Source: Crocosphaera sp. Alani8 (lineage in GTDB: Bacteria > Cyanobacteriota > Cyanobacteriia > Cyanobacteriales > Microcystaceae). Taken from it: DNA of 32,000 nucleotides. Of the stretch, positions 13,761 to 17,655 are shown piece by piece. Positions within the stretch are counted from its first letter, which is position 1, and each line of letters opens with the position of its first letter. The stretch spans positions 23,389 through 55,388 of the forward strand of contig NZ_JARVCN010000460.1 in the NCBI RefSeq assembly GCF_038442745.1, given 5' to 3'. The position numbers were made by a program, and so were the translations under genes. The notes beneath the pieces are model-generated. The model searched no databases and was not told the DNA's origin. It worked only from the letters and a program-made list of their open reading frames with translations.

Positions 13761-14768
13761 CTATTTTATCGCCTGACTAAGTATTAAAGCAAACCATTGA
13801 TTTTCATCTGTAAATATTTTTATTGGTTTTAATTTTTTAGAGGCTAATTTATATTTTGTATCTTCTACATCAAATTTTCGAGAAATTTCGGTTAAGATTT
13901 TTTCTCCTTTCTCTAAACTAACTGCTAGGTTAAGAGCTTCGAGATTTACTTTTTGTTTTTTTTCTGACAACAAATACATCTCTATTTGTTTTTTTTCTTC
14001 GTTGTAAATAGCCTTATGTTTAAAACAGTTAGGATCAAAATTCCCTTTAAATCTATTGTTTAAATGATTCAGCATATTCAAATTAAAAGTTGCAGTTACT
14101 CCTTGACTATCATTGTAAGCAGCTTCTAAAATAGACTTAGGCTTTTGTAAATCAACCCCCAACAAAAAATAATCTCCATTGTTTAAAACTTGTGCAATTT
14201 TATCTAAGAAATTATCATAGGCTACATCACTAAAATTACCTATAGAACTGCCTAAAAAAAATACCATTCTCCTCTGAGAAGCAAAAGAGTCTAAATGGCT
14301 TAGAGCTTCGTCATAAGTCCCTACTAAACCCAGAATATCCAAAGAATTATAATCTTGTTTTAGTTGTATTGCACTTTCTTTGAGAATTCCTGCACTAACA
14401 TCAATAGGCATATATTTAAAACCCTTTTTTTGTTGCTCATAAGCATCTAGTAATAAGCGAGTCTTCGTAGAGCTTCCACTCCCTAATTCAACCAATTCAC
14501 AAGTCCCTGTAATTTGTGCAATTTCCCCTGAATATTGTTTTAAAATACTTGCTTCTGTTCGAGTAGGATAGTATTCTGGTAACTGACAAATTTGTTCAAA
14601 TAATAGAGATCCTCGGTCATCGTAAAAATATTTAGGTGGGATGCTTTTAGGATATTGATTTAACCCTTCCTTAACATCTTGACCCCAGGATTGTTTTGCG
14701 TCTTTCCCTGTTTCAAGTGATTGTAAATACTCGATTTTAAATTTTTCTGTTTTTGGCTCATTCAACAT
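13761..14768 (-). CDS. egtD: L-histidine N-alpha-methyltransferase EgtD
   Basis: It has KYFYDDRGSLLFEQICQLPEYYPTRTE, ELGSGSSTKTRLLL and FLGSSIGNF, the EgtD (Methyltransf_33) signature blocks. Confidence 0.85.
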   Translation of the reverse strand: MLNEPKTEKFKIEYLQSLETGKDAKQSWGQDVKEGLNQYPKSIPPKYFYDDRGSLLFEQICQLPEYYPTRTEASILKQYSGEIAQITGTCELVELGSGSSTKTRLLLDAYEQQKKGFKYMPIDVSAGILKESAIQLKQDYNSLDILGLVGTYDEALSHLDSFASQRRMVFFLGSSIGNFSDVAYDNFLDKIAQVLNNGDYFLLGVDLQKPKSILEAAYNDSQGVTATFNLNMLNHLNNRFKGNFDPNCFKHKAIYNEEKKQIEMYLLSEKKQKVNLEALNLAVSLEKGEKILTEISRKFDVEDTKYKLASKKLKPIKIFTDENQWFALILSQAIK

Positions 14769-15256
14769 ACAATAACACAGATGCTCTGTGTTCGATTTTG
14801 CTCTTTTATTTTAAAACAAATTTTCTGTAAAAAACAAATTGCTAACCTTAATTTTTTTCATTTCGCATACTCTATATAGCTACAAGAGCATAACTTTTAT
14901 TTGCAGTAACATGAACCTTTAGGTGCTTTTTTATTTTTTTAACTAAACTTAACGTGATTGTCATAAAAAAAAAGTACAATAAATGAATGCACAAATGTAC
15001 AACACAGTTTATATTTTCCCAAATATATTATTAGTGGAGTTCTAGAAAACTCGTTGAGTACCTTACCACCATATTCAAGCAATTGAGACATGATAGTTTT
15101 GATAGTTTTCCTTCCATAAAAAAGTGTATTTGTCAAGAAAATAAATTATTGTCATTTGCAACATCAGACAAACAATTTGTCTTCGGTGAAATTAACTAGA
15201 AAAATTGGGGAACAATAAGGTTGACGAGTAAACCTAACCCTAGTGAGGAACCTTCA

Positions 15257-15694
15257 ATGGCTAAAACAAAAAGTGAACAAACTTTGGGAAGTCTGTTACA
15301 ACAAGCAAGACTAGTCAGCCCTCATCAGGTTGAGATTGCACTAAAAGAGCAGAAGAAAAATCCCCAACGTCGTTTAGGGGAAATTTTAGCTCAAAAAGGT
15401 TGGATAAAACAACAAACTGCCGATTTTTTCGCTGAAGATTGGGCCAGAACCCTAGAGAAAGCTCGCGAAGGAACTCCTCAATATCTGGGCTATTATCTAA
15501 AGAAAGCGGGCTTAATCAATGATAGTCAACTCCATAATATCTTAGAGGAACAAGGACAGGGAAGGATATGGATGAGAATCGGTGCTTTGGCTGTATTCAA
15601 GGGTTTGATTAACCAAACCACTGTTGATTTTTTTCTCCAACATCTTCACCCCAACCGTGCAGGGGATTCTCCTTTCCTGAAAGCTAGACAGTAA
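15257..15694 (+). CDS. Stand-alone protein with two MshEN / T2SSE_N-like modules
   Basis: I chose the ATG at 15257; the ORF-track start is TTG at 15221. There are two copies of the paired about-24-residue motif. The first is LGSLLQQARLVSPHQVEIALKEQ plus RLGEILAQKGWIKQQTADFF. The second is LGYYLKKAGLINDSQLHNILEEQ plus RIGALAVFKGLINQTTVDFF. Confidence 0.55.
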   Translation: MAKTKSEQTLGSLLQQARLVSPHQVEIALKEQKKNPQRRLGEILAQKGWIKQQTADFFAEDWARTLEKAREGTPQYLGYYLKKAGLINDSQLHNILEEQGQGRIWMRIGALAVFKGLINQTTVDFFLQHLHPNRAGDSPFLKARQ

Positions 15695-15704
15695 CTAAAA
15701 ATAG
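15691..15704 (+). promoter_or_regulatory. Candidate NtcA box (GTA-N8-TAG) overlapping the -35 region of the riboswitch/gif promoter
   Basis: gtaactaaaaatag differs from GTAN8TAC at one position. Possible -10 hexamers are taagat (15715-15720) and tattaa (15720-15725), only 10-15 nt downstream. That spacing fits a repressor-type position, as known for gifA/gifB, rather than the activator spacing of about 22 nt. Confidence 0.35.
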
Positions 15705-15740
15705 AAAAAAATGTTAAGATATTAACACAGCAGGATAAAT

Positions 15741-15799
15741 CGTTCATCTGCTGGCAACAGCAGACGGAAGTAGGGAAAACTATCCCGAAGGAACGCGCC
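15741..15799 (+). promoter_or_regulatory. Glutamine riboswitch (glnA RNA motif, type 1)
   Basis: P1 is cgttc (15741-45) paired with gaacg (15791-95). P2 is ctgctg-gcaa-cagcag (15748-63, GNRA loop). The conserved junction strings ACGGAAGUAGG (15764-15774, its last two G shared with P3) and CGAAGGAACGCGCC are present. A short P3 is ggga...tccc. The element lies 35 nt upstream of a strong SD and a small ORF. Confidence 0.8.
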
Positions 15800-15833
15800 T
15801 CATTCGATTCACCACGATTCAGAAGGAGGCGTT

Positions 15834-16001
15834 ATGCCCTTGAACAATGCAATTACTCGCCCGAAGGGGTTAGACGATTTACAGTCTAAATCCCGCTTTT
15901 TAATCGCTCAAAAACGTAGCAAGCATCAACATCGTAGACTATCGATGTTATTGCGCCTTTCCTCAGAGATGGGTATCTATGTTCAATCTTTAAAAGCATA
16001 A
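15834..16001 (+). CDS. gifA: Glutamine synthetase inactivating factor, IF7/IF17 family (55 aa)
   Basis: It is below the ORF-track length cut-off. The SD aaggagg lies 5 nt upstream of the ATG. The translation is MPLNNAITRPKGLDDLQSKSRFLIAQKRSKHQHRRLSMLLRLSSEMGIYVQSLKA. The core SRFLIAQKRSKHQHRRLSMLLRLSSEMGI aligns with Synechocystis IF7 as I remember it (ARALMMRHHQFIKNRQQSMLSRAAAEIGV). The three Arg reported as essential there (R8, R21, R28) align with R21, R34, R41. A glutamine riboswitch lies upstream, as known for gifB. Confidence 0.7.
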   Translation: MPLNNAITRPKGLDDLQSKSRFLIAQKRSKHQHRRLSMLLRLSSEMGIYVQSLKA

Positions 16002-16014
16002 ATAGAGGTGAGTT

Positions 16015-16170
16015 ATGACCAATAACCAAAAGCACTTAAGCGATGTTGCTCATCTTCATCGCTCTAACATTTTGAAAAGCTTAGAGCATCGTTTGCAAGT
16101 TGCAAAGACTAAAGGACAAAGTCGTTTAGTTCAGCAATTGGAAGCAGAAAAAAGCTACTACAGTCCTTAA
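16015..16170 (+). CDS. 51-aa basic small protein, co-transcribed with gif; PirA-like (tentative)
   Basis: It is below the ORF-track cut-off. The SD gaggtg lies 4 nt upstream of the ATG, and the ATG is 13 nt after the gif stop. The translation is MTNNQKHLSDVAHLHRSNILKSLEHRLQVAKTKGQSRLVQQLEAEKSYYSP. Length, charge and helical character match my recollection of the PII-interacting regulator PirA (51 aa). Sequence identity cannot be verified here. Confidence 0.5.
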   Translation: MTNNQKHLSDVAHLHRSNILKSLEHRLQVAKTKGQSRLVQQLEAEKSYYSP

Positions 16171-16201
16171 CCTTAACAGAGTTTTTACTCCAAGGTAATC
16201 A

Positions 16202-16249
16202 AGAGTTCTCGTTTCAACCATAACTTAGAAACGAGGACTCTTTGACTTT
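16202..16249 (+). terminator. Rho-independent terminator of the gif/sORF operon; shared with the convergent FG-GAP gene
   Basis: A 14-bp stem, agagttctcgtttc / gaaacgaggactct, contains one G-U pair and has a 12-nt loop. The T-rich tract tttgacttt follows. Confidence 0.65.
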
Positions 16250-16307
16250 AATATCAGTCTGATTGAATCAATCAATTTAGCTAGAAATATTTGATTTTAA
16301 AACAAGA

Positions 16308-17414
16308 TTATCTCAGTTTTGACCATTTTGTAGCTATTCCTAATAAACCTAACAGAATGAATCCAAAAATAGCGTTGGGTTCAGGAGTAGCAACTAAAAC
16401 TGAAATGTTATCACTATTAAAATTAGCAACCGCCAAATCTTCCCTATTGTCGTTGTTGAAATCTCCAATCACTACCGCTCTAGCTGCATCACCCACATCA
16501 ATGTTACGAGGGAAACTAAAGTTTCCGAGTCCATCTCCTAAAAGTAAGGAAACATCATTGCTGAAAAAGTTGGCCACTGCTAAATCTTCATTTCCATCGT
16601 CATTTAAGTCCCCCACCGCAATAGAAGGGGGTAAAAGTCCCACTGGAAAATCTGTGCGGTTTCCAAAACTCCCCAATCCGTCTCCAAACAAAATCGAGAC
16701 ATCGTTATCATCAGCATTGCCAACTGCTAAATCTAATTCACCATCACTATTGAAGTCCCCTACTGCTAGTGCATCTGGTCTATCTCCTACAACAAAATTG
16801 TTGGGTGAACCAAAGTTACCGATTCCATCTCCCAATAAGATAGAAACGTCATCGCTAAAAGCATTAGCTACTGCCAAATCTAAGAAATCATCATCATCAA
16901 AAAGGCCAGTAACTACGGCAAAAGGTCCATCTCCAACTACAAAATTGTCAGGATTAAGAGAGAAATTGCCAGTGCCATTTCCCAGTAACACTGAGACATC
17001 ATCTCCCTCAAAATTAACCACGGCGATATCGAGATTACCATCATTGTTAAAGTCTCCAATGGTCAAGGGAACCGGGCTATTTCCCACAGAAAAGTTAGTG
17101 GGAGAAGAAAAATTACCCACCCCATCTCCTAACAGTATAGAAACATTATTATCGATATTATTTGCAACTGCTAGATCTAATATTCCATCATTGTTAACAT
17201 CTCCCACTGCAACAAAAGTTGGAGCTTCTCCTACAGCGATATCGGTACGATTACTAAAATCTCCTGTTCCATCCCCTAGCAATACTGAAATATCATTGCT
17301 CTCGAAATTAACCACCACTAAATCCTGGTTAATATCATCGTTAAAGTTCCCTGATGCAATAGATAGAGGTGTATTACCTACCAAGAAGTCCGTACGACTA
17401 AAATTCAAACTCAC
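16308..17414 (-). CDS. Seven-blade FG-GAP/VCBS repeat beta-propeller protein with a PEP-CTERM sorting tail
   Basis: The GTG start is preceded by aggag 9 nt upstream. Seven ~49-aa repeats follow the pattern VGD(F/L)N.DG..DLAVAN...(D/N)(V/I)S(V/I)LLG.G.G.F. The C-terminus TPEPNAIFGFILLGLLGIATKWSKLR is PEP, then a TM helix, then basic residues. Confidence 0.85.
   Translation of the reverse strand: MSLNFSRTDFLVGNTPLSIASGNFNDDINQDLVVVNFESNDISVLLGDGTGDFSNRTDIAVGEAPTFVAVGDVNNDGILDLAVANNIDNNVSILLGDGVGNFSSPTNFSVGNSPVPLTIGDFNNDGNLDIAVVNFEGDDVSVLLGNGTGNFSLNPDNFVVGDGPFAVVTGLFDDDDFLDLAVANAFSDDVSILLGDGIGNFGSPNNFVVGDRPDALAVGDFNSDGELDLAVGNADDNDVSILFGDGLGSFGNRTDFPVGLLPPSIAVGDLNDDGNEDLAVANFFSNDVSLLLGDGLGNFSFPRNIDVGDAARAVVIGDFNNDNREDLAVANFNSDNISVLVATPEPNAIFGFILLGLLGIATKWSKLR
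16389..17387 (-). repeat. Seven tandem ~147-bp coding repeats (FG-GAP blades)
   Basis: The periodicity is seen directly in the translated sequence. The repeats have diverged at the nucleotide level. Confidence 0.8.
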
Positions 17415-17655
17415 GTTTATCCACTCCTACAATTAATAATAATTAGACAATTCAAGAGGCTATCTTGGCACAATTATTAAGGTTAGTCAAAAGACCTATT
17501 GTCAAAGATGATAGCAGTATTTATTTGCATAGATTATAAACTTTCTAGCTTTGAGGCAGAAGGCAGAAGTTAAATTTTCGGTTATTCTATTCAATTGAAA
17601 AATGCTTAGGTTAACTGGTAAAATATGAATTAATTGTTAGATATTAATACGTTTG

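Follow-up and report, generated by a model that had tools for sequence, protein, structure and literature searches.

Can a single glutamine-sensing RNA element act on two branches of nitrogen metabolism at once? This question is raised by a locus in Crocosphaera sp. Alani8 (contig NZ_JARVCN010000460.1, positions 23,389 to 55,388 of the forward strand; this whole stretch of 32,000 nucleotides is called the window here), in which a glutamine riboswitch is followed by two small open reading frames (ORFs), ORF1 and ORF2. Both encoded proteins are 100% identical to the NCBI entries of that strain, where ORF2 is named “arginine synthesis PII-interacting regulator PirA” and ORF1 “hypothetical protein”. 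We demonstrate the identity and the conservation of the components of this locus, and we consider it probable that they form a bicistronic nitrogen-excess operon, i.e., that the riboswitch turns on PirA together with ORF1, a short relative of the glutamine synthetase (GS) inactivating factor (IF) IF7, and by this means brakes both ammonium assimilation and arginine synthesis.

Both small ORFs are genes, and ORF2 encodes PirA

Comparison of 18 distinct orthologous sequences demonstrated that the differences by codon position are highest at position 3 in both ORFs (797/859/2575 in ORF1 and 1216/902/2373 in ORF2), and that ~53-54% of the changed codons are synonymous in frame versus 10-16% in shifted frames. 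Since substitutions concentrate at codon position 3 and changed codons are mostly synonymous, this coding signature indicates that ORF1 and ORF2 are both genuine genes under purifying selection. Each is preceded by a Shine-Dalgarno (SD) sequence, GAAGGAGG in the case of ORF1 and GAGGTGA in the case of ORF2.

ORF2 matches the NCBIfam model PirA_Argsyn (NF050139) over profile positions 2-48 of 48 with 69.8 bits (E = 1.3e-19), above the cutoff of 50, and has the conserved residue at each of the 16 invariant columns in an alignment of 24 PirA sequences, including the HR.NI.KSLEHRL...QLEAE core. By these matches, ORF2 is a full-length PirA. Its sole Pfam match, to ANAPC16, was sub-threshold and was set aside as spurious. 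According to Bolay et al. 2021 (PMC8092223), pirA is an NtcA-repressed gene, and PirA binds PII-ADP and lowers the PII-dependent activation of N-acetylglutamate kinase (NAGK).

ORF1 belongs to a short class of IF7-core proteins

Against the NCBIfam IF7A model (NF052599), ORF1 scores 20 bits (E = 6e-4, profile positions 3-38 of 66), which does not pass the cutoff of 70, and Pfam returned no match to ORF1, so that DUF4278, the domain of IF17, is absent. In alignment with IF7, ORF1 ends soon after the core helix. When a profile built from the Crocosphaera ORF1 family was compared with 1.84 billion representative proteins, most of the matches were small proteins bearing the IF7 motif, next to a few unrelated repeat proteins. 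Family members score 22-42 bits on IF7A, the small proteins matched by this profile and the orthologues from other lineages reach up to 49 bits, and no family other than IF7A was matched at a significant E-value by these relatives of ORF1. A joint alignment demonstrated that R21, R34 and R41 of ORF1 are invariant, have identical spacing across the family, and correspond in the alignment to R8, R21 and R28 of Synechocystis IF7, which are reported to be essential for GS binding (PMC6316151); the IF7 sequence used for this comparison was validated by its full-length IF7A match (123.6 bits). Because of the relatives found by the profile search, their matches to IF7A only, and the aligned essential arginines, we take the weak IF7A match to be true homology and class ORF1, by its sequence, as an IF7-core protein of a class that we name “mini-IF”.

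A further profile search counted 707 relatives, and the named top matches are almost all annotated as “hypothetical protein”. Hosts among these named top matches are Crocosphaera, Chlorogloeopsis, Rippkaea PCC 8801, Pleurocapsa/Hydrococcus, Gloeocapsopsis, Chroogloeocystis, Aphanothece, Gomphosphaeria and the spheroid-body endosymbionts of Rhopalodia. The class is ~50 aa long and has a riboswitch upstream in every locus examined. The only sequence matches of the ORF1 family in the PDB were weak ones to RadA/RAD51 (E = 0.06 or worse), and we took them as chance similarity of a short helix.

Could ORF1 have a role other than GS inhibition, e.g., as an IF7-derived peptide that serves as a co-factor of PII or PirA, or as a peptide translated merely to control pirA? 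The score of 20 versus 70 bits on IF7A, the missing C-terminal half of IF7, the lack of a Pfam domain and the annotation as “hypothetical protein” everywhere would fit such a role. We nevertheless consider it very unlikely, as the three arginines that IF7 needs for GS binding are invariant with identical spacing across the family, IF7A is the lone family matched, some members are found behind a riboswitch that has no pirA following, and purifying selection on the peptide argues against a mere leader.

A type-1 glutamine riboswitch with a predicted translational platform

The Rfam covariance model for the type-1 glutamine riboswitch (glnA RNA, RF01739) matches at 15739-15799 over its full length (model positions 1-53) with 59.2 bits against a gathering score of 35 (E = 8e-11), and this is the single Rfam match in the whole window. 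All orthologous and related loci submitted with enough upstream sequence scored 49-64 bits. Across 13 aligned genome loci, five pairs in the P1a and P2 stems changed on both sides, i.e., they are compensatory, and P1 is invariant. The earlier note on this DNA, made from the sequence alone, had proposed a glutamine riboswitch and two SD-preceded ORFs of 55 and 51 aa lying 13 nt apart, and had considered that ORF2 might be PirA-like; these points are borne out, and the three checks that it named (a covariance-model match, similarity of ORF1 to IF7, and ORF2 as PirA) came out positive. Its description of ORF1 as IF7-like was right as to the core similarity and the aligned arginines, and needs correction in that ORF1 is not a canonical IF7 or IF17 but one of a shorter, ~50-aa class.

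Our analysis of the region behind the aptamer showed that CGCCUCAUUC, directly after P1, is invariant in the 13 loci and that the SD region of ORF1, GAA(G/A)GAGGCG, is also kept, with a linker of 16-18 nt between these anti-SD and SD segments that varies between lineages. Neither segment varies among the 13 loci anchored on PirA or among the 4 anchored on the mini-IF. The alignment fold predicts a 9-bp helix between CGCCUC/UUC and GAA/GAGGCG, all nine pairs of which hold in 13 of 13 sequences, and the support for this helix comes from conservation, not covariation, both strands being invariant. A single-sequence fold also pairs the anti-SD with the ORF1 SD (-38.7 kcal/mol, z = -3.4). In addition, CGCCUCAUUC begins with the C equivalent to the long-range G-C partner (C68 in Synechocystis gifB). 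In that leader, the C of the glutamine-dependent long-range G-C pair starts the segment that masks the ribosome-binding site (RBS), and glutamine is proposed to switch translation on (PMC6212724). Since no U-run lies behind the anti-SD:SD helix, the folding predicts that riboswitch control is translational and not by termination.

At low glutamine, then, the CGCCUC..UUC segment 3′ of P1 would pair with GAAGGAGGCG and hide the RBS of ORF1. Once glutamine is bound, the first C of the segment would join the long-range G-C pair, the helix would melt and ORF1 would be translated, and the mini-IF would bind and inactivate GS through its three conserved arginines.

The aptamer is preceded by a second conserved motif, of which GGATAA shows no variation in the alignment of 13 genome loci. 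The longer form, AGGATAA, is present in almost all mini-IF-type riboswitch loci, across distant lineages, and absent from DUF4278-type riboswitch loci. It is SD-like, yet has no start codon behind it, and it is possibly a ribosome standby site or a 5′-end stability element. Pairing of AGGATAA with the P2 loop or the linker was rejected, the partner not being conserved in Chlorogloeopsis or Gloeocapsopsis.

The tandem of mini-IF and pirA recurs behind the riboswitch

Using one genome per species, we collected 115 PirA loci, of which 80 were kept. RF01739 lies ~220-280 nt upstream of pirA in 12 of these 80 loci, i.e., in the Crocosphaera/Cyanothece-clade genomes with enough upstream sequence, in two Chlorogloeopsis and in Gloeocapsopsis LEGE 06123. 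A hidden Markov model of the mini-IF found a small ORF between riboswitch and pirA in exactly those 12 loci and in none of the 68 others. Crocosphaera subtropica ATCC 51142 likewise has riboswitch, mini-IF and pirA in this order. Loci anchored on the mini-IF instead of PirA all have the riboswitch end ~36 nt before the mini-IF start codon (4 of 4). The gene following the mini-IF is pirA in Rippkaea PCC 8801 and in Chroogloeocystis, and Pleurocapsa PCC 7327 has riboswitch and mini-IF without pirA, with a GC-rich hairpin with a T-run behind the mini-IF.

A scan of metagenomes with a DNA pattern of the aptamer 3′ half plus the anti-SD identified 40 loci, 38 of them evaluable, and Rfam confirmed all 20 of the loci submitted to it. 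The riboswitch is followed by the tandem of mini-IF and PirA in 25 of the 38, by a DUF4278-only small ORF in 5, by a DUF4278-PirA fusion in 4 (3 distinct), by a canonical IF17 in 2 and by other genes in 2; both the search pattern and the abundance of near-identical Crocosphaera-like contigs bias the counts, which document recurrence, not frequency. Intercistronic spacers range from 9 to 41 nt overall and measure 13-14 nt in all 28 Crocosphaera-type loci, where they contain a conserved G(A/G)GGTGAG.

The DUF4278-PirA fusions (L098, which has the same sequence as L110; L119; and L122) are 127-146 aa long and stand directly behind RF01739 and a perfect NtcA box. Their N-terminal DUF4278 domain scores 42-80 bits in Pfam and their C-terminal PirA domain 50.3-50.8 bits in NCBIfam (cutoff 50), and from these domains they look like an IF17-style version of PirA.

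Several further observations concern individual lineages. The Rhopalodia gibba endosymbiont (L088) keeps riboswitch and mini-IF, and has a divergent PirA-like ORF of 44 aa with a GTG start (HRTNMLRILKYRL), which is displaced to a position ~100 nt behind the mini-IF and may reflect the decay of a gene in an endosymbiont. The C-termini of riboswitch-linked PirA proteins are mostly LEAE(K/R)xYY, and those of stand-alone PirA in Nostocales are LEAE(M/I/V)(R/K)Y(S/F). Chlorogloeopsis carries the operon type and groups with Nostocales, a hint that an ancestral operon has been retained or that horizontal transfer has occurred. In Crocosphaera watsonii WH 8501 (L008), the region upstream is unlike that of other Crocosphaera genomes and contains a Cyano-1 RNA (RF01701, 46.6 bits) at 1554-1632, ~590 nt upstream of the riboswitch.

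NtcA control seems weak or lost at the probable operon

Of 68 stand-alone pirA loci, 67 have a perfect GTAN8TAC ~75 nt upstream of the ATG. In the 13 riboswitch-linked loci, by contrast, the stretch that covers the promoter region, ORF1 and pirA contains no perfect NtcA box. When riboswitch-linked loci were scanned from -500 to +480, the lone perfect box was at -426 in one locus (L017). The element of the window that the earlier note had called a near-consensus NtcA box, GTTAAGATATTAAC, proved degenerate: it reads GTT-N8-AAC and departs from GTA-N8-TAC at positions 3 and 12, which leaves 4 of 6 consensus positions matched. Of 13 orthologous loci, 4 retain the GT..AC pair and 9 have lost the right half-site, among them C. 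watsonii WH 8501 and C. subtropica ATCC 51142. The pattern TGT-N10-ACA occurs 14 times in the window, with 7.2 expected, and was rated no more than chance on sequence alone.

It could be argued, in line with the earlier note, that GTTAAGATATTAAC is still a working NtcA operator over the -10 element, which represses under nitrogen limitation (high 2-oxoglutarate) and to which the riboswitch adds a second layer, as in Synechocystis gifB. GT and AC are retained in the box, its only deviations are at two positions (3 and 12) that have been described as somewhat variable, and NtcA sites over the -10 element repress transcription (PMC6212724). Moreover, 10 of 14 riboswitch promoters of the DUF4278 type or unclassified have a perfect NtcA box 23-31 nt before P1, and the degenerate box of the window (about -28 from P1) sits where DUF4278-type promoters have these perfect boxes. 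On the other side stand the match at just 4 of 6 positions to a pattern that is not above chance, the frequent loss of the right half-site, and the mini-IF-type loci, 0 of 30 of which have a perfect box at the equivalent position (three have one further upstream); the AT-rich core may also be conserved simply as a -10 element. We therefore find such dual control rather unlikely. From these comparisons, the NtcA-like box of the window may be a weak or decaying operator, and the operon seems to have lost, or to keep in weak form only, the NtcA control by which stand-alone pirA and gifB are typified.

Within this box, the hexamer TATTAA is the putative -10 element, and the start site would lie near 15731-15733. 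Other candidates were rejected. TAGACA-16-AAAAAT (15685-15712) was the only promoter found by a consensus scan, which gave fewer sites than chance would predict, and is not positionally conserved, and GATAAA (15734-15739) as a -10 element would put the start site inside P1. The motif GTTAGACGATTTAC (15868-15881, inside ORF1), which matches 5 of 6 NtcA consensus positions, was not accepted as an internal promoter of pirA, since its geometry suits neither an activating nor a repressing site and its recurrence in several Crocosphaera orthologues probably follows from the conservation of the L-D-x-L-Q codons.

A conserved ATTACGGTTTTC...GACAGAAGC block, ~60-70 nt ahead of the aptamer, is common to four loci of Chlorogloeopsis and Chroococcidiopsidales (L015, L016, L017 and L089). 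In Chroogloeocystis, this block makes a perfect NtcA box, GTACGGTTTTCTAC, at -69, which is reminiscent of the distal NtcA site of Synechocystis pirA.

How PirA may be coupled to the riboswitch

The tight spacing of the two genes, the lack of an intercistronic hairpin and the conservation of the tandem in several lineages lead us to read the locus as a single unit, a claim of the earlier note that we share as to these features, with co-transcription itself as our inference. Transcription from a promoter just upstream of 15739 would give an mRNA of ~510 nt ending at the hairpin at 16201-16242. This hairpin had been described as a terminator with a 14-bp stem; it is present, with 15 pairs including one G-U (folded segment -29.7 kcal/mol, z = -4.72), and it is its role as a terminator that is less secure. 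PirA would be co-produced, either by ribosomes that re-initiate after ORF1 or from an mRNA stabilized by translation, and would bind PII-ADP and reduce NAGK activation. Rising glutamine would in this way slow ammonium assimilation and arginine synthesis jointly.

The link from riboswitch to PirA is the weakest step of this mechanism. The claim that the riboswitch gates PirA does not stand as the earlier note had worded it, in that the predicted platform masks the RBS of ORF1 only; a gated PirA would follow indirectly. A structure that masks the SD of PirA found no support as the means of coupling: no intercistronic hairpin was predicted in the folded loci, and the SD region gave z values of +0.96 in the window, +1.54 in a Crocosphaera-type locus, -0.64 in Chlorogloeopsis and -1.62 in Gloeocapsopsis.

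The alternative is that the transcript is shared but PirA synthesis is independent of the riboswitch, through its own RBS or an internal promoter, with control by an NsiR4-type small RNA (sRNA) or by proteolysis. PirA has its own SD (GAGGTGA) with no predicted structure, and the switch works by SD sequestration, not termination. Riboswitch and mini-IF occur without pirA in Pleurocapsa PCC 7327, which makes that pair the core unit, and Synechocystis PirA is controlled post-transcriptionally by other means (PMC8092223; PMC9196836). Independence is less easily reconciled with the very tight linkage, conserved between evolutionarily distant lineages (9-41 nt, and 13 nt within the Crocosphaera clade), or with the operon-type pirA lacking the perfect NtcA box of 67 of 68 stand-alone genes, which leaves it no obvious nitrogen input, or with the DUF4278-PirA fusions, which elsewhere put the PirA domain under direct riboswitch control. 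We judge independent PirA synthesis unlikely, and we favor coupling because the 13-nt spacer would allow re-initiation, because operon-type pirA has no other recognizable nitrogen input, and because of the fusions. As these fusions stand directly behind RF01739, glutamine-gated PirA is predicted to have arisen in a second architecture.

Several points weigh against the coupled operon that we favor. ORF1 is well under the IF7A cutoff (20 versus 70 bits) and is without the C-terminal half of IF7, and pairs of GS and IF are species-specific (PMC6316151). Promoter and start site are guesses, and a consensus promoter scan gave nothing convincing; the hairpin at 16201-16242 has a poor U-tract behind it and was not called by a consensus terminator scan. 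The strong SD of PirA is predicted to be unstructured, which makes translation independent of ORF1 possible, and the metagenome loci carry the sampling bias described above.

Layout of the locus and neighboring genes

Coordinates of the features of the locus are given in Table 1.

Table 1. Features of the riboswitch, mini-IF and pirA locus (positions in the window)
Feature	Position	Strand	Basis or remark
NtcA-like palindrome GTTAAGATATTAAC	15713-15726	+	4/6 consensus positions, GT and AC kept
Candidate -10 hexamer TATTAA	15720-15725	+	Within NtcA-like box; inferred
Leader AGGATAA, immediately 5′ of aptamer	15732-15738	+	SD-like; alignment of 13 genome loci
Type-1 glutamine riboswitch aptamer (glnA RNA, RF01739)	15739-15799	+	Rfam covariance model
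Anti-SD segment CGCCUCAUUC	15796-15805	+	Predicted pairing with ORF1 SD; invariant
ORF1 SD region GAAGGAGGCG	15822-15831	+	Masked in predicted OFF state
ORF1, “mini-IF”, 55 aa	15834-16001	+	NCBIfam IF7A sub-cutoff match, arginine alignment, coding signature
Intercistronic spacer, 13 nt	16002-16014	+	Between ORF1 and ORF2
ORF2 SD GAGGTGA	16005-16011	+	Inside intercistronic spacer
ORF2, PirA, 51 aa	16015-16170	+	NCBIfam PirA_Argsyn equivalog
Hairpin of 15 bp with 12-nt loop, probable transcript end	16201-16242	+	Folding

Two unrelated genes flank the region 15691-16249. The upstream neighbor (15221-15694, + strand) encodes a 157-aa protein with two MshE-type motifs that bind cyclic di-GMP (NCBIfam NF053729, 72 bits), and its synteny with the operon is restricted to the Crocosphaera clade. 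Downstream lies an FG-GAP repeat gene (16308-17414, - strand; FG-GAP_3, 135 bits). A 381-aa ORF at 16291-17436 (+ strand) is unlikely to be a gene, being an antisense shadow of the FG-GAP gene without a Pfam match. Further upstream, 13761-14768 (- strand) encodes an EgtD-type histidine methyltransferase (Methyltransf_33, 399 bits). In two syntenic loci (L001 and L002), the EgtD-type gene adjoins an FGE-sulfatase/EgtB-type gene, and the two look like an ergothioneine biosynthesis pair kept beside the operon in the Crocosphaera clade.

Relation to known systems

Klahn et al. 2018 tied the type-1 glutamine riboswitch to DUF4278/gifB genes (PMC6212724), and the closest known counterpart of our locus is the gifB (sll1515) leader of Synechocystis sp. 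PCC 6803, which likewise has an RF01739 aptamer, a proposed translational ON switch and a gene of the GS-inactivating-factor type directly downstream (PMC6212724). The Crocosphaera unit differs in that ORF1 is ~50 aa long and without DUF4278 (IF17 has 149 aa), in the addition of pirA, in the lack of a consensus NtcA box and in the invariant, class-specific AGGATAA leader. With IF7 of Synechocystis (gifA, ssl1911) and IF7A of Anabaena PCC 7120, ORF1 shares the N-terminal ~36 residues and the three arginines; like them it is small, basic and expected under nitrogen excess, but it lacks the C-terminal ~30 residues and has ~15 extra N-terminal residues. Unlike ORF1 with its riboswitch leader, gifA is monocistronic, NtcA-repressed and NsiR4-regulated, with no known riboswitch. 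A different truncation is seen in Prochlorococcus and marine Synechococcus, where a type-2 glutamine riboswitch is associated with DUF4278-only, IF17-like genes. That system also combines a glutamine riboswitch with a shortened member of the IF family, but its aptamer is RF01704, it keeps DUF4278 and loses the IF7-like part, i.e., the opposite of the mini-IF, and PirA is absent from the clade.

ORF2 resembles PirA of Synechocystis (ssr0692) and Anabaena (asr1328) (PMC8092223) in being a full-length protein of 51 aa with all family-invariant residues. The pirA genes described so far are monocistronic and have an NtcA-repressed promoter of their own, a regulatory trait that does not define the protein, whereas ORF2 has no such box and lies 13 nt behind a riboswitch-controlled gene. 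The same source mentions annotations of PirA with an N-terminal extension in Thermosynechococcus elongatus and Synechococcus JA-3-3Ab, which its authors suspected to be mis-annotations. The DUF4278-PirA fusions behind RF01739 are probably of the same kind as these extended annotations, which are single fused proteins with no riboswitch link in the text consulted, whereas the window has two separate ORFs.

The earlier note knew of no description of this arrangement, and in agreement with it we found no operon of a gifA-like gene and pirA, no riboswitch before pirA, and no combination of DUF4278 with PirA in the searchable literature through mid-2026, a search that excludes subscription-only papers. 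What is new is the short IF subclass and the riboswitch-driven two-gene unit that includes PirA; the parts were already known. A broader reading is plausible, and we offer it tentatively. The ~50-aa, IF7-core mini-IF behind a type-1 riboswitch would be a third class of GS inactivating factor, which recruited pirA and lost the NtcA operator (Crocosphaera, Rippkaea, Chroococcidiopsidales and Chlorogloeopsis), so that in these lineages intracellular glutamine, sensed directly by RNA, would take the place of 2-oxoglutarate/NtcA in throttling both GS and the PII-NAGK arginine branch, with the DUF4278-PirA fusions as a second, independent solution.

Significance

So far, the riboswitch has been tied to GS inhibitors of the IF17 type, and PirA has been known as monocistronic and controlled by NtcA and sRNA. 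The assays established for Synechocystis (reporter, in-line probing, GS-inactivation and PII-binding) are directly applicable to the components described here. If our reading is true, this conserved operon would widen the riboswitch regulon to the control of arginine and of the ornithine-ammonia cycle, a widespread class of GS inhibitors would now be hidden under “hypothetical protein”, and the operon would be a natural swap of the 2-oxoglutarate/NtcA input for a direct glutamine input. The arrangement is found in marine nitrogen-fixing Crocosphaera and in the spheroid-body endosymbionts of diatoms, where the balancing of newly fixed nitrogen is central.

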